64,000 nt of DNA from a phage, in assembly GCA_019338205.1 (NCBI GenBank), contig GCA_019338205.1_4761.1; one strand, written 5' to 3'. A program made the translations under genes and the position numbers. The notes beneath the pieces were generated by a model that saw nothing but the letters and a program-made list of their open reading frames with translations, was not told the DNA's origin and did no database searches. This document shows, one piece after another, positions 2,770 through 53,733 of this stretch. Position 1 is the first letter of the stretch. The number at the start of each line of letters is the position of its first letter.

Positions 2770-4632
2770 ATGGAAAAACTAATCAAAGACATTACAGAGA
2801 TCGCAACGGGTAAAGAAAACGAAGTAAGCAAAGAGAACGCGAACAAAGACGCGCGAACATTCCCGACACGTCGAGATCTGATTGCTGGTGCTGTGTCTAA
2901 ACAGATTGCTAAAACCGTGTTACCTGAGCACATCTATAAAGCGCATGTAGACGGTGATATTCATTATCATGATATGGATTATGCACCCGCTATGCCGTTT
3001 ACTAACTGCTGTCTTGTTAATCTAAAAGACATGTTAGAGAATGGTTTTAAATTGGGTAGCGCACAAATCGAAAGTCCGAAATCAATCGGCGTTGCTTGTG
3101 CTGTAACCGCTCAAATTATCGCACAGGTGGCAAGTCATCAATATGGCGGGACCACAATTGCAAATATCGATCAGGTGTTAGCGCCGTATGTTGAGAAAAC
3201 ATATCATAAACACCTTGCTGATGCCGAAACCTACGGAATCAAAGCTAATACTCTCTATGCACAAGAGAAGACAGAAAAAGAAACGCTAGACGGATATCAG
3301 GCGTTGGAATATGAGATCAACACTTTGTTCTCTACCAACGGTCAAACACCTTTTGTGACTTTAACCTTTGGTATGGGTACTAGCTGGGAAGAAAAACTGA
3401 TTCAGAAAGCGATCTTGAAAGTTAGAATTAAAGGTTTAGGTAAAGATGGTATAACTCCGGTGTTTCCTAAGCTGGTGATGTTCTTAGAAGAAGGATTAAA
3501 CCTTAAACCGGAAGATCCGAACTACGACATTAAGCAACTTGCATTGGAATGTTCTAGTAAGCGTCTTTACCCTGATTATATCTCTGCGAAGAATAACCGT
3601 AGTATCACCGGATCTAGTGTTCCGGTTAGCCCGATGGGTTGTCGTAGCTTCCTGGGTGTGTGGCATAATGAGAAAGACGAGGAAGTATTAGACGGACGTA
3701 ATAACTTAGGTGTTGTGACTCTGAATCTTCCGCGTATTGCCCTTATTGCCTCGCGTCGTGCTGGTAAAGCGTCTGTAATGCGCAGAATTGAGCTATTCGA
3801 ACAAGAGCTAGCTAATCGTATGCCTATTTGCTTTGATGCGCTCATGAGTCGCGTAGACGCTTTAAAAGGGGCTAAAGCCAATGTTGCTCCGGTGCTGTAT
3901 ACAGAAGGTGCATTTTTCCGTATTCATCAAAACGATGAAATTTTGGAAGTGCTGAAAGATGGTCGCGCTAGTATCTCTCTTGGATATATTGGTTTACATG
4001 AGGTATTGAGCGTCCTGTTTGGTGTTCATCCGTTTGATTCGGAAGATGCGCAGCGATACGGTAAACATATTCTTAAGATCTTGCGTCATTATACTGAAAA
4101 ATGGAAGGATGAAACCGGACTTGGGTTTAGTCTTTACGGTACGCCAGCCGAGAGCCTTTGCTATCGATTTAATCGACTGGATCGAGAGCAATTTGGTATT
4201 GTTAAGGGTGCTACCGATAAAGACTGGTACACTAACTCATTCCACCTTGACGTAGACCGGAAAGTCACACCATTTGAGAAAATCGACTTTGAGAAAGATT
4301 ATCACTGGCTGGCGTCCGGTGGCATGATCTCTTATGTTGAGTTCCCAGACATGAAAAACAACCTGAAAGGTCTTGAAACTGTAGTAGACTATGCAATGGA
4401 TAAATTGCACTACTTCGGTGTTAATACTCCTTCTGATGTATGTCATGTATGCGGATCTAATAAGGAAATGAGAGCGACCGAGTCTGGTTTTGTTTGCCCT
4501 GATTGCGGCAATGACAATCTGGAAAAGATGAATGTTATCCGTCGCGTTAGTGGATATCTTGGATCTGTTGATCTGCGTCCATTTAACCACGGGAAACATT
4601 CCGAGATGGTAAACCGCGTTAAGCACATGTAA
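2770..4632 (+). CDS. nrdD: anaerobic ribonucleoside-triphosphate reductase (class III RNR), uninterrupted
   Basis: 620 aa; C-terminal glycyl-radical motif RVSGYLG and CxxC zinc ribbon (CHVCGS...CPDCG); same position as T4 nrdD. Confidence 0.93.
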   Translation: MEKLIKDITEIATGKENEVSKENANKDARTFPTRRDLIAGAVSKQIAKTVLPEHIYKAHVDGDIHYHDMDYAPAMPFTNCCLVNLKDMLENGFKLGSAQIESPKSIGVACAVTAQIIAQVASHQYGGTTIANIDQVLAPYVEKTYHKHLADAETYGIKANTLYAQEKTEKETLDGYQALEYEINTLFSTNGQTPFVTLTFGMGTSWEEKLIQKAILKVRIKGLGKDGITPVFPKLVMFLEEGLNLKPEDPNYDIKQLALECSSKRLYPDYISAKNNRSITGSSVPVSPMGCRSFLGVWHNEKDEEVLDGRNNLGVVTLNLPRIALIASRRAGKASVMRRIELFEQELANRMPICFDALMSRVDALKGAKANVAPVLYTEGAFFRIHQNDEILEVLKDGRASISLGYIGLHEVLSVLFGVHPFDSEDAQRYGKHILKILRHYTEKWKDETGLGFSLYGTPAESLCYRFNRLDREQFGIVKGATDKDWYTNSFHLDVDRKVTPFEKIDFEKDYHWLASGGMISYVEFPDMKNNLKGLETVVDYAMDKLHYFGVNTPSDVCHVCGSNKEMRATESGFVCPDCGNDNLEKMNVIRRVSGYLGSVDLRPFNHGKHSEMVNRVKHM

Positions 4633-4637
4633 TTTTC

Positions 4638-4669
4638 AGCCGATCCGAAAGGGTCGGCTTTTTCGTTTT
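4638..4669 (+). terminator. rho-independent terminator
   Basis: AGCCGATCCGAAAGGGTCGGCT hairpin followed by TTTTTCGTTTT directly after the nrdD stop. Confidence 0.7.
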
Positions 4670-4675
4670 GGGGTG

Positions 4676-4703
4676 TTGACAACCTGATTAGCTAATGTAT
4701 AAT
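4676..4703 (+). promoter_or_regulatory. sigma70-type early promoter
   Basis: TTGACA 4676-4681, 16-nt spacer, TATAAT 4698-4703. Confidence 0.6.
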
Positions 4704-4732
4704 GCTCACATCGAAAACAACGAGAGGACAAC

Positions 4733-5275
4733 ATGATGATGATGTTTTGTGTACTGAGCAAAGAAGTTAAACTTCGTAAACTGGAAATTGGCGATGGTGT
4801 TGTTGTTAAAATGCACGCTAGCACATTGGCTAGTTTTAATTTAAAGGAAAGTTTTTTTATTAGAGGAACGGTGGTTAATATCTGCTGGAGTCAATGCGAA
4901 GGAATCCGTAGCTTTTGCGTAATTGACGATGATAATAACCTGTATGTGATTCGCTATCATAATAATTCTGTATTGGTCTATACCGACAATTCACGAGAAT
5001 TATATACTCTTGAATTTGTTAAGCGTACTGATTGCGACCTATTTGTTCGTGCTTATGAAGAAGATGGCTGTTTTGCGACTGAAACAGAAACAAATGAATA
5101 TGTTCCTATGGAAGTAGGGGCAGAAATTAAACACAAGATCACGGATCGTATTTTTAAGGTTGTGGCGGTTGCTCATACTCAATTTGTAGCGCAAGCGCCG
5201 GATGAAGAATTTATTATCTACAATATTGGTAATGCAAGTTCTCATTTTCATAATGTACTATATCGCGACCTTTGA
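4733..5275 (+). CDS. hypothetical protein
   Basis: 180-aa ORF with GAGAGGACAAC leader; no recognisable motif. Confidence 0.6.
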   Translation: MMMMFCVLSKEVKLRKLEIGDGVVVKMHASTLASFNLKESFFIRGTVVNICWSQCEGIRSFCVIDDDNNLYVIRYHNNSVLVYTDNSRELYTLEFVKRTDCDLFVRAYEEDGCFATETETNEYVPMEVGAEIKHKITDRIFKVVAVAHTQFVAQAPDEEFIIYNIGNASSHFHNVLYRDL

Positions 5276-5894: not shown

Positions 5895-6047
5895 ATGTGG
5901 ACTTTACTGATTTGGGAAACTGAAAACGCACAAGTAGAAATCCGTGAATACGAATACCTAAGCCCAGCTTATCTATTAGCATCTCGCGGTGGTTACTATA
6001 AAGCGCAGATTGTAAACGAGTTCGGGGTGATTGAATATGAGTTCTGA
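5895..6047 (+). CDS. small hypothetical protein (50 aa)
   Basis: ATG 5895 after AGGAGAATCAAAT leader; track ORF 5820..6047 trimmed; overlaps the nrdG start. Confidence 0.5.
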   Translation: MWTLLIWETENAQVEIREYEYLSPAYLLASRGGYYKAQIVNEFGVIEYEF

Positions 6048-6540
6048 TACATACGGCAAACTACGCTATGCCGATATTAAAGATTGTGATATGGTTAACG
6101 GTGAGGGAGTGAGAGTCTCCCTTTACGTTACCGGATGTTCACACGCATGTGATGGTTGCTTTAATGCTAGCCTACTCAATCCTAAGAACGGGGAACCATT
6201 CACCGATGATACAATGGGATTGATTCTGGATCTGCTTAGACCTGATTTTATTCAGGGGCTAACATTCTTAGGTGGCGATCCACTGTATAAACGCAATTTA
6301 AAGGGTGTACAGCGGATCATCGATGAAGTAAAATCATGGATGCCAAATAAAGATATTTGGCTATGGTCTGGTTATACCCTTGACCAATTGAATGATGAGC
6401 AAAGAAAAATTGTAGAATCAGTTGACATGTTCATTGATGGGCGTTATATTAAAGATATGCCAACGAAGAAGCCGTGGCGGGGGTCTGACAATCAAGTACA
6501 ATACAAGATTGTTAATAGTATTCCAGTGAAAATTATTTGA
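6037..6540 (+). CDS. nrdG: anaerobic RNR activating protein (radical SAM)
   Basis: CxxxCxxC motif CSHACDGC near the N-terminus; about 167 aa; follows nrdD as in T4. Confidence 0.88.
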   Translation: MSSDTYGKLRYADIKDCDMVNGEGVRVSLYVTGCSHACDGCFNASLLNPKNGEPFTDDTMGLILDLLRPDFIQGLTFLGGDPLYKRNLKGVQRIIDEVKSWMPNKDIWLWSGYTLDQLNDEQRKIVESVDMFIDGRYIKDMPTKKPWRGSDNQVQYKIVNSIPVKII

Positions 6541-24518: not shown

Positions 24519-25927
24519 TTAAAACTATCTTTTCACAGTTGATTTACAATGGCGCATTCTTTACGAATGTATGGCCTCACCTTAAAGCGGACTACTTCAC
24601 CGAAGACGAAGAAAAACTGATTTATAAGCTGATTAAAAAGCACGTAGACGAATATTCCAATATTCCTACGCCAACTGCATTACAGATTGCTTTAGACAAG
24701 GAGAGAGGCAATCAGACAACATATGAAGGGGCTAAAACTCTTCTTGATTCGCTTGAGAATACACCGGAAGACCTTGATTGGTTAATGAAGGAAACCGAAA
24801 AATTTATTCGTGACCGCGCTATGTATAATGCAATGTCACGGGCGCTAGAGATTCAGGCGAACGCACAACTACCAAAAGAGAAACAGAATAAGAAATTGCC
24901 GAGTGAGGGTGCTATCCCTGAGATCATGCAGGAAGCACTATCCATTACGTTTGATTCTGATGTAGGTCATGACTGGTTTAATGACTTTGAAAAACGATTC
25001 TTGCTATATCAGACTAAGGCGAATAAGATCCCGTTTAAGCTGCCGATGTTGAATAAAATCACGAAAGGAGGGGCGGAAAGAAAAACGCTAAATGTGTTGC
25101 TTGCTGGTGTAAACGTTGGTAAATCGCTTGGCTTGTGTTCTCTTGCTGCGGATTATATGGAATGTGGTTATGATGTATTGTATATCTCAATGGAGATGGC
25201 AGAGCATGTCGTAGCCAAACGTATCGACGCAAACTTGCTTGACATTACATTAGATGAATTGGATAATGGTAATGTTTCTTTTGCGGAATATTCCGCACGT
25301 ATGAAGCGTGTTAAGAATAAGAAGATCGGGGATCGTCCGGTTGGAAAATTGATGATCAAGCAGTATCCGACTGGTGGCGCAAACTCCAATCACTTTGAGG
25401 CGTTAATGAATGAATTGCGACTCAAGAAACAGTTTAAACCTGATGTTGTGATTGTTGACTATCTGGGGATTTGCGCATCGTCTCGCTTGCGTGTATACTC
25501 TGAAAATAGTTACACACTAGTTAAGGCGATTGCGGAAGAACTGCGAGGATTTTTTGTTAAGTGGGATGTTGTTGGTTGGACTGCGGCACAGACTACCCGC
25601 GAGGGTTGGGATGCTTCCGACCTTAACATGAGTGATACCGCTGAATCAGCAGGTCTTCCGGCTACTGCCGACTTTATGTTGGGTGTTATCGAAACCGAAG
25701 ACCTGGCTAAAATGGGCGTCCAACTCATGAAGCAGATCAAGTCTCGTTACGGTGATAAGAACTATTATTCACGGTTTAACGTTGGTGTGAAGAAAGGCAA
25801 TCAGCGTTGGTATGAAGTACCAAACCAGATCGCAGATCAGGAGAATGCACAAGTTAAACCACAAAGCGCACAGCAAGCCGAGAAACGAGAAAAACTCGAC
25901 GAGCTAGCAAATAACATGACTTTCTAA
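24515..25927 (+). CDS. 41: replicative DNA helicase gp41 (DnaB-like)
   Basis: Walker A LLAGVNVGKS, Walker B VVIVDYLG; 470 aa. Confidence 0.92.
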   Translation: MIKTIFSQLIYNGAFFTNVWPHLKADYFTEDEEKLIYKLIKKHVDEYSNIPTPTALQIALDKERGNQTTYEGAKTLLDSLENTPEDLDWLMKETEKFIRDRAMYNAMSRALEIQANAQLPKEKQNKKLPSEGAIPEIMQEALSITFDSDVGHDWFNDFEKRFLLYQTKANKIPFKLPMLNKITKGGAERKTLNVLLAGVNVGKSLGLCSLAADYMECGYDVLYISMEMAEHVVAKRIDANLLDITLDELDNGNVSFAEYSARMKRVKNKKIGDRPVGKLMIKQYPTGGANSNHFEALMNELRLKKQFKPDVVIVDYLGICASSRLRVYSENSYTLVKAIAEELRGFFVKWDVVGWTAAQTTREGWDASDLNMSDTAESAGLPATADFMLGVIETEDLAKMGVQLMKQIKSRYGDKNYYSRFNVGVKKGNQRWYEVPNQIADQENAQVKPQSAQQAEKREKLDELANNMTF

Positions 25928-44087: not shown

Positions 44088-44846
44088 ATGAAAAACATTA
44101 TCGCTGCTATCGTTCTTTCTGCTACTGCTTTCGGTGCTAACGCTGCGTCCTTTGATTGCGCTAAAGCTACTACCAAATCAGAGAAGTTTATTTGTGCTAA
44201 TGAGTCTATCTCCGCACTGGACTCTAAACTTCATGAAGTGTATGTTAAGGCTGTTAAGATTGATCCGTCTCTGAAACAAGAGCAACGAAACTGGAATAAA
44301 ACTGTTCGTGATACAATGATCAATATCGGGCAGATTCAGCCACTGGAGGCTGTATACAACGCTCAAATCCAAAACTTGATGAATGTATTACCTAAAGAAG
44401 AAACCGCGTCAGAAAGCGATTCAGAGACTTCTGCGAAGGTTGAAGAAGAACAACCGAAACAGGAAGCAAAAGTGGTAGAAGAACCGAAGGTCGAAACTTT
44501 TACCTATCAATGCACTGTTCGCTATGAGTGGAGTATTAAAGATGGAATTTCTACCAAAATTAAAGAAGCGCCACTGTATGCCAAATATGGAAATCAACCA
44601 GGAGATCTTAAAGTAACCATTAAAAATGGGAAGATGGTTGATTTTGTATACATTGATGAATACAACGTACACAAAGCAAACGTACAAGAAACCGTTATGA
44701 CTAAAGGCGGGTTTTATAAGAATGTTGGCAAGAAAGATCTATATGAATACTCCGTTTTCGAACCAAACGACGGAACTATTCGATTTGAAAAACGTCATCC
44801 TACATTCGGTGGAGCAATTGATGTAGATCAATACGTTTGCAAGTAA
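44088..44846 (+). CDS. secreted protein with LprI/DUF1311-like N-terminal domain
   Basis: signal peptide MKNIIAAIVLSATAFGANA; SFDCAKATTKSEKFIC...LDSKL..VY...QRNW...RD pattern typical of DUF1311; acidic linker; 252 aa. Confidence 0.7.
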   Translation: MKNIIAAIVLSATAFGANAASFDCAKATTKSEKFICANESISALDSKLHEVYVKAVKIDPSLKQEQRNWNKTVRDTMINIGQIQPLEAVYNAQIQNLMNVLPKEETASESDSETSAKVEEEQPKQEAKVVEEPKVETFTYQCTVRYEWSIKDGISTKIKEAPLYAKYGNQPGDLKVTIKNGKMVDFVYIDEYNVHKANVQETVMTKGGFYKNVGKKDLYEYSVFEPNDGTIRFEKRHPTFGGAIDVDQYVCK

Positions 44847-47143: not shown

Positions 47144-47800
47144 TTATCTAATCCTTCCGAGGATTCTGGCAGATTGATTGCAAAGAGTATCTAAATTCTC
47201 AATGTCAATATCCGGTTTATTCTTCCATGCAATGGAGATACTACCAGAATAGACATTGTCGAGATTGAATATAGGACAAGAATACATAACCCCTATATCG
47301 ATACTCTCTAATTTCTTTTCTCTTGATGGAATATACTGGAAATCTTTATCGGTAAAATAGGATTTACCTAAAAGATGCCTACGATATTCTTCACTCGTTT
47401 TATTGATAGGGAATCCGCCTAAATTCTTTTCGTCGATCGTATGAGGTAGCTTTCCTTCATATGCCACCAAATCAACAAAATAGTTTAGGTTTTTCGGACG
47501 AAAACTAAAAACAGCAGAAAAATCGGCATCAGCCGACACATGAACTATCTGTAACTGCTCCTGTGCTGCATTATCAAAATTGCGGTCTTTCTCTACCTGG
47601 AGAACGTGAGCATAAGTCTCATAACGAGTCTCTTTATAAAGCGCAAATAACTCGTTTTTACTATAAACGACAAATGCTAATATAGACAACACGACGGCAG
47701 CAAAAACACGAAGTACGAGCAACTCCGTGCTTTTAGTTGTGAAAATAGCGCGCAGGACATTTGAGATAGCAAAGTCTTTCCCTTTTTCAGAAACTTGCAT
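47144..47800 (-). CDS. t: holin T
   Basis: 218 aa, same length as T4 T; LEQLQIVHVSADADFSAVFSFRPKNLNYFVDLVAYEGKLP and CNQSARILGR match remembered T4 holin; N-terminal transmembrane segment. Confidence 0.93.
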   Translation of the reverse strand: MQVSEKGKDFAISNVLRAIFTTKSTELLVLRVFAAVVLSILAFVVYSKNELFALYKETRYETYAHVLQVEKDRNFDNAAQEQLQIVHVSADADFSAVFSFRPKNLNYFVDLVAYEGKLPHTIDEKNLGGFPINKTSEEYRRHLLGKSYFTDKDFQYIPSREKKLESIDIGVMYSCPIFNLDNVYSGSISIAWKNKPDIDIENLDTLCNQSARILGRIR

Positions 47801-48073: not shown

Positions 48074-48126
48074 AGCCGTTTCTCCTTAGTAGTTCCCTTC
48101 CCTGGGAGTTTTCCTTAATTCTTTTT

Positions 48127-48429
48127 TTAACGGTTGCTCAAGCGTCTATAACGAAGATGGGAAATACCCCTGTTTGTAGTTACCGTGATCGTTACTCCCT
48201 GCGGCACAATACAAGAATGGATCTGTCCCCAATCATGACCCTTATGACTTCCAGACACACAGAAGCCATGCAAAAGCAATTCTGAGTCACCACCGCCACC
48301 ACCAGAAGAACTAGCACCAAATGAAACCGTACCGAAAGCGTCGGCTGTCCAACCGTTAGGAATATCAAACCATCCCTGATTCGCTTTACCGGCTTTATTG
48401 TCTAAAACTCCATACACCCAATATCCCAT
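48127..48429 (-). CDS. glycine-rich small protein, paralog 3 of 3
   Basis: 100 aa; W.DIPNGW motif and GGGGG run; tightly packed with its paralogs. Confidence 0.6.
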   Translation of the reverse strand: MGYWVYGVLDNKAGKANQGWFDIPNGWTADAFGTVSFGASSSGGGGGDSELLLHGFCVSGSHKGHDWGQIHSCIVPQGVTITVTTNRGISHLRYRRLSNR

Positions 48430-48734
48430 TAATGCATTCTCCTAAATTGGAAGTGGTTTAAACTTCCTTTACCAATACTAAAACTGACAGTAGCGCCAGC
48501 ACCAACTAAAGAACTTGCTCCCCAACTTCCTGCATTACCAGCGTGATGACCTGATTCGAGAGTACCGTTTACATATAATTCTGCGTCCAGGTCACCACCG
48601 CCACCAACGGCTTCGGCATGAACAGACACAATACCGCATGAATCAGCCACCCAACCATTAGGGATACCAAACCACCCACCATTAGCATAAATGCTAATAG
48701 CATTAGCCATTCTTCCCGCAACCCATCCAGCCAT
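48429..48734 (-). CDS. glycine-rich small protein, paralog 2 of 3
   Basis: 101 aa; GGWFGIPNGWVADSCG, GGGGD. Confidence 0.6.
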   Translation of the reverse strand: MAGWVAGRMANAISIYANGGWFGIPNGWVADSCGIVSVHAEAVGGGGDLDAELYVNGTLESGHHAGNAGSWGASSLVGAGATVSFSIGKGSLNHFQFRRMH

Positions 48735-48736
48735 AA

Positions 48737-49033
48737 TTAAAACTCCATAAATTTAAAGTATTCAATACCACCGCCACCACCATGACCAAAGGTGACAGTA
48801 CATCCAGCAGGAACAAACGCATTAACCGTAAATCCCCAATCCCCACCACCACGACGACGCGCGGCGACCACACCGTCAACGGAAATATGAATATCACCCC
48901 AAACATCACGAGCGGTATGCCGCAAAACGGCAACACCAGCACGACCGGGGACATATCCATTAGGAATGTCAAATACATGCCATTTTACAGCATCGATTTT
49001 AGTTCCTTGTTCATTACTTACCCAATAGCCCAT
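48737..49033 (-). CDS. glycine-rich small protein, paralog 1 of 3
   Basis: 98 aa; FDIPNGYVP, GGGGG near the C-terminus; immediately downstream of gp37. Confidence 0.6.
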   Translation of the reverse strand: MGYWVSNEQGTKIDAVKWHVFDIPNGYVPGRAGVAVLRHTARDVWGDIHISVDGVVAARRRGGGDWGFTVNAFVPAGCTVTFGHGGGGGIEYFKFMEF

Positions 49034-49039
49034 TTAAAA

Positions 49040-49062
49040 TCCTTAGCGGGGATTTCTCCCCG
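49040..49062 (-). promoter_or_regulatory. intercistronic stem-loop
   Basis: perfect inverted repeat AGCGGGGA-N-TCCCCGCT between gp37 and the first Gly-rich ORF. Confidence 0.5.
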
Positions 49063-49071
49063 CTATTTAAA

Positions 49072-52000
49072 TTAACCAAATAATTTTGCTTCAATTGCAG
49101 CAAGACGATCATGAAGAATTTTATTTTCTTCTTTCAGACGGTTATTTTCTTCTTTAAGAAGTGCGATTTCTTCGGTGTGTTCGTTGATTGCCGCAGTATT
49201 TAAACCAATTACACCGTTATAGTTCAAACGAAGTAGAGCTTCGCCATCAGGGTCACCTTCAACTAATTCTGGTAAAATAGCTTGAACTTCTTGAGCAATT
49301 AAACCGGCGTTAGGTTCCCATTTCTGATTGCCTTCTTCATCTAGGCCTCGCTTCTGCATATAAGTGTAACCATTAATTTTGGAAAGCCTCTCAGAAGCAT
49401 TTTCAAATTTAACAAGGTCTTTTTTAACACGAATATCAGAACGAACATAAACATCGCGGACATATGTGGAATAGGAATCGCTTTGTTGGATTAAATGACC
49501 AAAAGAAATAATAGCTCTTCCGTGTTCAGTCCACAGAGCACCAGTGGTATCCCAAAGACCTTCATGGAGATGGTAAGCGGACGACCATGAAGCAATATGC
49601 ATTCCATTTGCAACCATATTGATTCGGCCGTCACCACCATGAACTAATCCAGTATCATTATCACCAATAACAACACATGCGCCTGTCCATACAGGGTCAC
49701 CTCCACCAGCTGATACTCTTACTCCAGCTTTAACCATGTCAGGAACGTACATGTTTCCATTATGGTGGAATTCGAAGACAGCTTGCGGATCAGAACCATT
49801 TTCCTGGTTACCTACACGAATAATACCTTGTGCCCAGTTATTAGGAATGCGTCGCATACCAAAATCAACGCCAGAAAAATATCCTTCGTTAGTAATACCA
49901 GATTTTCCTTTAATAATAGGGTAATAGCAGTCATTACCGACATAACCAAAATCCACAAATATAGGAGCTTCTTGACGCCATTGATTTCCCCAATCGCCGG
50001 CCTGGTGTGCGATCCATTGTGTACCGTTTATATGAAGGCGGTCTCTATTAAAATTAAATGTTCCTTGTCCTTGAGGAGAAAGCGATATTTCGCCGTTATT
50101 TGTTATGTATACAGCGCCTTGTGTAATGTAACTGTAAAAGCCTAGACCATTGTCACCACCGCCTTTGCCTATATACCAGTTACCTGTACCGTCTATGTCA
50201 CCACGAATATGCAAAGAATTACTAGCAGTTGTTGATAATACAATAGAATCACCCGGACGTTTAATAATCAATCTACCTTCGGATTCAACTTCACCAAAAA
50301 ATTTAGTCTTAATTGCACCAGTCGCTAAAGTACGTTCAGTGGAAAAATGAACGCCTTTGCTATCTTCTAACTGGATGATGTTATCACGAGCATTATTACT
50401 ATCACCCCAATGGTTAAATTTAAAATAATCTCGTGATCCTAAACGTCCGGCGTCAAAAATCATCAAGCCTTTCATGTTAATATCACCACCAAAAAATGCG
50501 GTGAGAGAATCACATTTTAATTTTAAAACGTTAGCACGACTAGTACCACCTAAAGAAACATCACCAGTGCTAAATTCATAACTGAAAGGTCTATTTGTAT
50601 TAAAGTTTCCATCTTTATCATTTTCGTCGGTGGAAAGAATATAAAGACGCGAGCTATCAGCACGGAAAATTGTACCAAAATTTCCGCCATACATACGGAA
50701 AGCATTAGCTGGGCGGAATTTAACTTCTGCGTTAAAAGTTGTAGTTGATTTAAACGTGGTTGCAGCACCGAAGTTAACTGCACCATTAAAATCTTGTTGA
50801 GCTGTCCATGTATGGCGACCATCTTCAAGAACAACACGACGAACTCTGCAACTTCTATTTCCCGGATTACCAGCAACACGAACGACAAAATAACGGTAGT
50901 TATTTTGTGTCACAGTACCGCGCCAAACCTGAACAGTACGCCCTGTGCTAGTGTGTTCGCTAGGACCGACGGAAAACAGAATCAAGTTTTCATCAATCGT
51001 GCCCCAATCCATATTTTCTGGCATGTTCTTTATTTTGTTCAAAGGAACGCTAAACATACTACCGGGGACAAAATCAAAAGTTTGCCAATCTAACTCTGTT
51101 AATTTAGATTTAACACCACCCATACCCAAAGTAATTGGCATAGAATAGGACGTATATACTTCGTACCAATTGCCCCAGATGTTATTTGTCATCGCACGTT
51201 CAAACACGCGAGATCGCGTAGTTTCACCCGTTCCTGCGGTAGTGAAACGTTGGAAAATAGCGCCGCCGGAAGCACGCTGTTTAACCTCAAGCAATCCGGT
51301 CATCTCAACCGGAACACCTTCTGCAACTGGACGGTTAATAACGGCATCAGTGCCTAAAATATTATATAAGCCAGGAGAACGAAAATTATTAAGATCCCCG
51401 TCATAAAATGTGCTGGGAGTAACCATGCCTACTTGTTGCCACGGTCCCCAATTCGGAGCTTCTGGATCCCATGCACCAGCAAGACAACGAACATATACAA
51501 CACCCATTCGGGTAGTATAACGTTGCGTGCGAGAATAGTTACCACCTTCATAAATTTCTAAAAGACCTTGCGCGAGACCACCTTCTTCTGGGTAATTTCG
51601 AGAAAATGATGCAATGGAACTTGAACTATTTCGCCATAACCCAAAATGAGAAGCATCACCTAAAGTATTCAAGTCTAGTGTAGTTGATAGTGGACGTGTG
51701 CCAGTTTGAATATTGCGCCACGGACCCCATGGACCATCTACGCCATTCCATTTCGCGGACAAAGAACGGATATAAACGTTACCAGACCGAACCGTATAAC
51801 GCTGAGTGCCAGCAAATTGACCAGCCACAAATACTTCTAATACACCTACAGCATTCTCTTCTGGGAATTTATTTGCTGGCTGCGCATTTGTTGAAGTTGA
51901 TTTAGACCAAACGCCAGTAAATTTACCAGTAGGTCCATAATTATCTAAATTTGCATCAGATGGCAACTCACCGCGAAAGTGTCCCAAAGTAATTACATTA

Positions 52001-52134
52001 TTGCTGTCATCTTTTGTATATAGTTCTCGATCCGCTAGGTTAATAGCAAGTTCACCCGGAGTTAGAATATTCGCATCCGGCTTGCGACCTGCCGTACTTG
52101 TTCTTTTAAATTGGATTCTCTGTAAATCTGCCAT
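49072..52134 (-). CDS. 37: long tail fibre distal subunit gp37 with C-terminal intramolecular chaperone domain
   Basis: N-terminus MADLQRIQFKRTSTAGRKP...GELAINL...TKDDS matches remembered T4 gp37; C-terminal 150 aa look like the self-cleaving chaperone of tailspike/endosialidase proteins (SDIRVKKDL...NAGLIAQEVQAILPELV...). Confidence 0.9.
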   Translation of the reverse strand: MADLQRIQFKRTSTAGRKPDANILTPGELAINLADRELYTKDDSNNVITLGHFRGELPSDANLDNYGPTGKFTGVWSKSTSTNAQPANKFPEENAVGVLEVFVAGQFAGTQRYTVRSGNVYIRSLSAKWNGVDGPWGPWRNIQTGTRPLSTTLDLNTLGDASHFGLWRNSSSSIASFSRNYPEEGGLAQGLLEIYEGGNYSRTQRYTTRMGVVYVRCLAGAWDPEAPNWGPWQQVGMVTPSTFYDGDLNNFRSPGLYNILGTDAVINRPVAEGVPVEMTGLLEVKQRASGGAIFQRFTTAGTGETTRSRVFERAMTNNIWGNWYEVYTSYSMPITLGMGGVKSKLTELDWQTFDFVPGSMFSVPLNKIKNMPENMDWGTIDENLILFSVGPSEHTSTGRTVQVWRGTVTQNNYRYFVVRVAGNPGNRSCRVRRVVLEDGRHTWTAQQDFNGAVNFGAATTFKSTTTFNAEVKFRPANAFRMYGGNFGTIFRADSSRLYILSTDENDKDGNFNTNRPFSYEFSTGDVSLGGTSRANVLKLKCDSLTAFFGGDINMKGLMIFDAGRLGSRDYFKFNHWGDSNNARDNIIQLEDSKGVHFSTERTLATGAIKTKFFGEVESEGRLIIKRPGDSIVLSTTASNSLHIRGDIDGTGNWYIGKGGGDNGLGFYSYITQGAVYITNNGEISLSPQGQGTFNFNRDRLHINGTQWIAHQAGDWGNQWRQEAPIFVDFGYVGNDCYYPIIKGKSGITNEGYFSGVDFGMRRIPNNWAQGIIRVGNQENGSDPQAVFEFHHNGNMYVPDMVKAGVRVSAGGGDPVWTGACVVIGDNDTGLVHGGDGRINMVANGMHIASWSSAYHLHEGLWDTTGALWTEHGRAIISFGHLIQQSDSYSTYVRDVYVRSDIRVKKDLVKFENASERLSKINGYTYMQKRGLDEEGNQKWEPNAGLIAQEVQAILPELVEGDPDGEALLRLNYNGVIGLNTAAINEHTEEIALLKEENNRLKEENKILHDRLAAIEAKLFG

Positions 52135-53725: not shown

Positions 53726-53733
53726 TATTTATA
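53726..53733 (-). promoter_or_regulatory. T4-type late promoter (TATAAATA)
   Basis: TATAAATA on the minus strand about 33 nt upstream of the gp36 ATG. Confidence 0.6.

Follow-up and report, generated by a model that had tools for sequence, protein, structure and literature searches.

The window, that is, the whole stretch of 64,000 nucleotides of phage DNA that was analysed, derives from a T4-like phage of E. coli that is RB49-like (Krischvirus). Between the gene of gp37, the distal subunit of the long tail fibre, and a holin gene it carries three small genes, here called A, B, and C and collectively the trio, in a region that is 96.9% identical to Escherichia phage vB_EcoM_G2248. The following features were located:

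47144..47800: holin T, downstream of the trio (Pfam, E = 3.4e-60)
downstream of gene C, before the holin: ORF of 79 aa (phrog_402)
48113..49695, minus strand: mobile cassette of fibre tip, chaperone domain, and trio, from blastn against Escherichia coli siphovirus prophages
48127..48429, minus strand: gene C, third, 100 aa, predicted N-terminal helix with MGYW and predicted jelly-roll body
48429..48734, minus strand: gene B, second, 101 aa, N-terminus MAGWV
48737..49033, minus strand: gene A, first, 98 aa, predicted N-terminal helix with MGYW, predicted jelly-roll body, C-terminus ...FKFMEF
49044..49065, minus strand: GC-rich stem-loop between the gp37 stop codon and the ribosome-binding site of gene A
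49072..52134, minus strand: gp37, long tail fibre distal subunit, 1020 aa (PHROG 1699, E = 2.7e-187; Pfam Gp34_trimer and Peptidase_S74)
49075..49440, minus strand: self-cleaving intramolecular chaperone domain of gp37, residues 899–1020 (Pfam PF13884)
49441..49683, minus strand: mature distal tip of gp37, residues 818–898 (GDNDTGL..GGDGRIN..)
53726..53733, minus strand: T4-type late promoter TATAAATA, upstream of gene 36, exact match

The three minus-strand ORFs of 98, 101, and 100 aa are packed exactly as an earlier, sequence-only reading of the ORF list had described them, and the Pfam and PHROG matches agree with its placement of gp37 upstream and the holin downstream. Genes A and B are separated by 2 nt, the stop codon of B overlaps the start codon of C (TAATG), and a Shine-Dalgarno-like sequence lies ahead of each gene; by this arrangement A, B, and C are translationally coupled. 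Pairwise BLASTP confirmed the proposal that they are paralogs, with identities of 40% between B and C (E = 5e-15), 33% between A and B (E = 2e-7), and 28% between A and C (E = 2e-7). The shared motif reads HVFDIPNGY in A, GWFGIPNGW in B, and GWFDIPNGW in C. Nei-Gojobori dN/dS ratios ranged from 0.03 to 0.43 (0.06–0.43 for gene B) in eight pairwise comparisons per gene that included close and distant relatives, and the three are thus real protein-coding genes under selection. Exact late-promoter matches occur only twice in the window. One of them, TATAAATA at 53726..53733 on the minus strand, likely marks, judging from the match, the start of a late transcript running through genes 36 and 37 and the trio.

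The trio constitutes an undescribed family, whose members appear in the databases as hypothetical proteins and whose genes are mentioned in none of the papers found on G2248, UPWr_E1, Krischvirus gp37/gp38, and C1q/TNF-like fibre caps. Neither A, B, and C nor any of 33 family members had a Pfam match at E ≤ 1, which covers the C1q (PF00386) and TNF (PF00229) signatures, and PHROG gave no meaningful match for A, B, and C; the tail fibre assembly families Tfa and Caudo_TAP were matched by the trio in neither database. A PDB sequence search with the family returned nothing below E = 0.048, and the match at this value (7EEA, a cyanophage tailspike) was discarded as a sum of weak fragments without significance. 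Whereas a word-indexed search for the family gave 34 clusters, only about 15 small proteins (97–129 aa) emerged when 1.84 billion representatives were searched exhaustively with an HMM. The large proteins obtained in the latter search (2552, 2715, 3591 aa, and others) were rejected as compositional artefacts because one of them, P0037, is an ankyrin-repeat protein and another, P0053, has a repetitive sequence. A scan of the GTDB representative genomes revealed no trio loci.

Conserved positions of the family comprise an N-terminal [GA]-x-W-[VIL], the motif (W/V)(F/Y)DIPNG(W/Y), and a few glycines at tight turns, and the C-termini are type-specific (..FKFMEF in A, ..F(K/Q)FRRM in B, ..RYRRL in C). 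In most members of all three types [GA]-x-W-[VIL] is found at a fixed spacing of about 17 residues ahead of FDIPNGW, and the spacing of the Trp to the core is kept even in members with an N-terminal extension; two distant C-type members have Met or Leu instead of the conserved Trp. The glycine runs, which had been listed as a second shared feature, do exist in the window (GGGGG in A and C, GGGG in B) but are local and not family-wide: they sit in loops, their position differs between A and B/C, and relatives have ANGNGG, NGAGD, SSKS, and similar sequences instead. They were thus rejected as a family signature, being absent from relatives in the alignments. As to the N-termini, A- and C-types usually begin right at M-x-x-W, and the B-types of L010/L011, L021, L027, and L031 (Salmonella and metagenomic loci) have an extension of 10–30 residues before the conserved Trp that often contains P-K/R-I-P, these extended B proteins being 105–125 aa long.

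AlphaFold2 models of gene C (pLDDT 83, pTM 0.74) and gene A (pLDDT 82.5, pTM 0.69) consist of an N-terminal helix at residues 2–12, which has lower confidence, followed by a seven- to eight-stranded sandwich. Structural matches of both models were dominated by C1q, TNF, BclA, and viral fibre knobs. A and C are therefore predicted to be compact C1q/TNF-like jelly rolls, a statement about fold and not about homology. Each subunit has one conserved Trp on its predicted N-terminal helix, which amounts to three per trio.

The upstream partner, gp37, matches Peptidase_S74 (PF13884) at residues 899–958 (E = 2.4e-12) and contains the cleavage motif VR|SDIRVKK at Ser899, where RSDIRVKK aligns with SSDRRIKK of S16 gp37. 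A phmmer comparison with PDB 6F45_A, the S16 gp37 construct, gave E = 1.1e-40, query positions 140–328 corresponding to gp37 residues 818–1006. By this match the gp37 tip in the window is a homologue of the gp38-docking tip of S16 gp37, and residues 818–898 are the presumed docking site of the trio. A C-terminal chaperone domain of gp37 had been set against the position of the trio in the gp38 slot. The domain is present, but it provides no contrast with gp38 users, as the gp37 proteins of RB49, G2494, and S16 carry it as well. Since RB49 gp37 has a self-cleaving chaperone domain and a gp38 monomer attaches once this domain is removed (PMC9569957), the domain does not distinguish the phage of the window from phages that use gp38. 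The trio accompanies three different pre-cleavage tip types, of which the window has type II; type I also occurs with gp38 (RB49), and so does type III (G2494, with the same tip as L013–L015). Because types I and III take either companion and type II is S16-like, gp38 and the trio behave as alternative companions of the same fibres. Trio alleles did not co-vary with tip type, and an identical A protein was found with types I and II.

A family HMM was run on the six-frame ORFs of all fetched loci. In each of 29 loci the number of tandem copies is exactly three, in the order A-B-C, barring two decayed copies, that of KFS-EC and that of a prophage in which B is truncated. The comparison for copy-number variation that had been suggested thus revealed none among intact loci. 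Orthology is position-specific, first genes scoring best against other first genes and second and third genes likewise, and this holds in metagenomic loci that are only 25–40% identical to the window, with L028_B as a marginal case. These observations bear on the possibility that the genes encode three alternative homotrimeric caps (A3, B3, C3), which would provide up to three receptor specificities per virion or population. C1q/TNF-like domains are often homotrimeric, as is established knowledge and is also reflected in the structural matches, each protein has a Trp-helix of its own, and phages with several receptor-binding proteins are common. Independent function would however predict gains, losses, and shuffling, whereas number and order are invariant among intact loci, orthology by position persists down to about 25–35% identity, and the overlapping stop and start codons suggest 1:1:1 synthesis, so that three separate caps are improbable. 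A single 1:1:1 complex, as assumed in the reading that we prefer, is suggested instead by the invariant gene number, order, and orthology together with the translational coupling, and such a stoichiometry would match the threefold symmetry of the fibre.

In all 28 loci in which it was readable, the upstream fibre ends in an S74 chaperone domain with the cleavage motif R-S-D-x-R-L/V-K. The fibres in question are of three kinds, found in a T4-like myovirus, in siphovirus-type prophages of E. coli and Salmonella, and as a 615-aa fibre with a Phage_T7_tail N-terminus. Twenty-four of 5426 complete E. coli genomes carry the trio, with every copy being chromosomal and annotated as three hypothetical proteins. 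The prophage genes run from portal and protease-capsid through three small genes to the fibre, the trio, the tail tube, the tape measure, the distal tail protein, and a J-like tip, which places the trio between the fibre and tail-tube genes, inside the virion operon and far from the lysis genes. The structural matches to XepA and YomS and the nearby holin in the window had offered a reading as lysis cassette, which was rejected because the prophage trio adjoins tail genes and not lysis genes. More generally, the trio could be accessory cargo that travels with the fibre gene and serves, for example, superinfection exclusion, anti-defence, or a lysis-related function of the XepA or YomS kind. 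Against such cargo speak, besides the position in the prophages, the linkage to S74 fibres in 28 of 28 cases across three phage morphotypes, the exclusion of gp38 described below, the lack of a signal peptide or membrane segment in the sequences of A, B, and C, and the lack of a detectable promoter of the trio itself in the window; we regard this explanation as hardly probable.

The locus is also mobile. By blastn, window positions 48113–49131, which comprise the trio and the last 60 nt of gp37, are approximately 92% identical to the E. coli siphovirus prophages L005, L007, and L008, and positions 48113–49695, which comprise the trio, the chaperone domain, and the distal tip, match L006 and L009 at 85–88% identity. 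For the trio region, the identity to the prophage of E. coli UTME-12 is 96.8%. Differences between the window and G2494 are confined to positions 48136–49756, and what was exchanged is hence a cassette of tip, chaperone domain, and one or more companion genes. Two of these prophages have insertions of their own: a gene with a NUMOD3 domain, which is typical of homing endonucleases, lies in the tail module of L009 (14094–14867) and is missing from sister prophages, and in the UTME-12 prophage (L032) the capsid and portal genes are separated by an IS1B element (24838–25535), so that this prophage may be defective.

Comparison of the segment from gp37 to the 79-aa ORF across 59 Krischvirus records showed the slot after gp37 to be empty in RB49, occupied by a gp38 adhesin in G2494, and occupied by a decayed trio in KFS-EC; the trio is found in it only in G2248, G37-3, and UPWr_E1. 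The earlier assignment of the trio to the gp38 slot is therefore correct, as it directly follows an S74-bearing gp37 where G2494 has gp38. No relationship of sequence was apparent. A, B, and C lack matches to Pfam GP38 (PF05268) and Gp38_N (PF21721), both of which are matched by the genuine gp38 of prophage L039, and the profile comparison with gp38 adhesins that the sequence-only reading had proposed assigned a probability of 0.2% to the alignment of the family with G2494 gp38 (hhalign), so that the trio was rejected as a gp38 homologue. The ground on which an adhesin had been suspected, the glycine motifs of T2-type gp38, also falls away, since the runs are not conserved and the predicted fold is not a polyglycine sandwich.

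gp38 and the trio nevertheless replace each other. Neither the complete G2248 genome (170,678 bp) nor the 64-kb window contained a gp38 detectable by tblastn at E ≤ 1 with both Krischvirus gp38 types as queries, for which positive controls worked. RB49-type phages have gene 38 at a remote site (AY343333 45367–46143), as has been noted previously (PMC9569957; bioRxiv 10.64898/2026.04.02.716166). Krischvirus gene 38 has two alternative positions, either between the homologues of ORF078 and ORF080, about 55 kb from gp37, or directly after gp37; in the phage analysed here the former falls about 6.5 kb beyond the window. The remote site is cleanly empty in 13 of the 59 Krischvirus records and precisely so in G2248 (MK327932 45250–45312), G37-3, and UPWr_E1. 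KFS-EC (L002, MH560358) still has gp38 at the remote site, with 98% identity to RB49 gp38, and its trio (locus 5950–6500, minus strand) is reduced to a single ORF of 107 aa after gp37, a chimera of A and C joined at the repeats that code for the glycine runs, with B deleted and a frameshift in the C part. The opposite replacement is seen in the prophages L039 and L040 (locus 3296–5213), where an S74 fibre is followed by the genuine gp38 with Gp38_N and GP38 domains. Past gp38 comes a stretch of 84 nt with 97.6% identity to Krischvirus sequence, namely the intergenic region and the beginning of the 79-aa ORF, and this stretch is fused to the last two thirds of gene C, forming a hybrid ORF of 70 aa (P0030). 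The Krischvirus-derived cassette inside these siphovirus prophages thus comprises gp37 tip, chaperone domain, gp38, and the 84 nt. Because Krischvirus sequence is fused to a remnant of C, a Krischvirus cassette must have overwritten A, B, and the 5′ part of C. Fibre-tip cassettes, as this shows, have passed in both directions between lytic and temperate phages. No gp38 was found in any trio-bearing locus. Judged from the gene content of these genomes, gp38 and the trio exclude each other, and this is seen in both directions.

Taken together, these comparisons establish the trio as a conserved unit under selection that is strictly linked to S74 fibres, mobile, and exclusive of gp38. The guess that the genes encode modular tip or adhesin proteins affecting host range thereby gains support from comparative genomics, since the trio and gp38 are mutually exclusive in the same slot in two unrelated phage backbones, even though the reasoning behind the guess fails. 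It had also been remarked that the proteins are much smaller than known gp38, which is explained if three subunits together make one cap. Only from the mutual exclusivity with gp38 do we infer that the trio caps the processed fibre tip. S16 gp38 binds gp37 via three conserved tryptophans (PMC6851490). The local Trp sequences in the trio family (AGWVAG, GYWVS, GHWVSE, VGWVHD) resemble those of the first gp38 Trp-helix (PGWIGSS, AGWVGSS, GPWVGSS), although the motif is too short to establish homology, and the trio might be an equivalent of the gp38 attachment domain that is split up, each subunit contributing one helix.

A different function in the same place would be that of non-structural assembly or maturation factors for S74 fibres that do not stay on the virion and that aid trimerisation, protect the tip, or control or follow the cleavage of the chaperone domain. 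Such a role would fit the strict linkage of the trio to the S74 domain and not to any one tip type, the minimal shared cassette, in which the trio is joined by only the terminal 60 nt that code for the chaperone domain, and a moderate sequence diversity, and T4 gp38 is an established assembly factor in the same slot (PMC6851490). We nonetheless consider it unlikely, given that many S74 fibres fold without the trio (RB49, G2494, S16), that in both backbones the trio is replaced by the adhesin type of gp38 and not by a chaperone, that C1q/TNF-like knobs are typical of distal binding domains and not of known fibre chaperones, and that a chaperone function would hardly account for three conserved paralogs that are not equivalent.

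The explanation that we prefer, with a probability of roughly 0.55, takes A, B, and C for the subunits of one heterotrimeric cap, which would dock on the processed tip of gp37 in the manner of gp38 and act as the adhesin. Presence on the virion, a 1:1:1 heterotrimer, docking by the tryptophans, and receptor binding are all elements that we infer. According to this model, gp37 would fold with the help of its C-terminal chaperone domain, which would then cleave itself off at Ser899 and thereby expose the trimeric fibre base. The Trp-helices of A, B, and C would plug three symmetry-equivalent hydrophobic pockets, as do the three Trp-helices of the S16 gp38 monomer, and the three jelly rolls, C1q/TNF-like in fold, would together build a heterotrimeric knob of pseudo-threefold symmetry, in which the loops at the far end, variable and locally glycine-rich, would contact the host receptor. 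More tentatively, and with the odds somewhat against it, the trio may represent a new type of adhesin, in which three separately encoded C1q/TNF-like paralogs cap a homotrimeric self-processed tip with one Trp-helix each, as a split and non-homologous equivalent of gp38 that moves between lytic T4-like phages, temperate siphoviruses, and T7-type fibres.

Among known systems, gp38 of the T2/T6/S16 type (PF21721 plus PF05268; PDB 6F45) comes closest. It occupies the same slot right after an S74-bearing gp37, serves the same kinds of fibre tip (the window having a homologue of the S16 tip), can take the place of the trio and vice versa in the Krischvirus and siphovirus-prophage backbones, and has docking helices that the Trp-bearing N-terminal helices of the trio resemble. 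It is, however, one monomer of 250–260 aa with three Trp-helices, a β-helix, and a polyglycine-II sandwich built from conserved glycine-rich motifs that alternate with hypervariable segments, whereas the trio consists of three proteins of about 100 aa, each with one helix and a predicted jelly roll and with glycine runs that are not conserved. C1q/TNF-like trimeric heads are found in the C1q A/B/C heterotrimer, lymphotoxin α1β2, BclA, collagen VIII NC1, and knobs of viral fibres such as PRD1 P5; compared with these, the trio proteins are smaller (about 85 sandwich residues versus 120–140), have no Pfam C1q/TNF match, and are encoded apart from the stalk to which those heads are fused. S74 fibres and spikes (endosialidase K1F, T5 pb1, S16 and RB49 gp37) share the domain and the Ser-Lys cleavage motif with the partner gp37, in which self-cleavage would expose the docking surface of the trio, but the trio itself lies outside the S74 family and most S74 fibres have no such companion genes. 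The Tfa proteins of Mu, P2, and lambda and the T4 gp38 chaperone, assembly proteins that remain on the tip, are, like the trio, small and encoded directly after the fibre gene, and they act on the tip as the trio would; they are single genes as opposed to a conserved trio, whose fibres already carry a chaperone domain of their own.

A separately encoded fibre-tip adhesin is already known as a kind, whereas a phage-fibre cap that combines three different C1q/TNF-like chains would be structurally new and, if true, an example of a symmetric trimeric fibre bearing a cap that is asymmetric and heterotrimeric. In T-even-like phages, receptor prediction and host-range engineering currently assume either a directly binding gp37 tip or a gp38 adhesin, to which the trio would add a third arrangement, one that moves between phage backbones of very different kinds. 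In the output of current annotation pipelines it amounts to no more than three hypothetical proteins, and receptor predictors based on gp38 miss it. The natural swaps of gp38 and trio provide ready-made experimental designs.

Two further elements of the window deserve mention. The stem-loop at 49044..49065 (RNA fold −22.6 kcal/mol, z = −3.95), which the G2248 record annotates as a putative terminator, falls within the segment common to the window and the prophages, whose cassette conserves it; its role may be attenuation or the stabilisation of RNA. If it attenuated transcription, it could, speculatively, set a ratio of gp37 to each cap subunit of 3:1. On the plus strand, positions 44088–44846 contain an ORF of 252 aa with an N-terminal signal-like sequence, MKNIIAAIVLSATAFGANAAS, and a Glu/Lys-rich linker, which matches RB49ORF260c by position and size (759 bp) and may encode a secreted or periplasmic phage protein.
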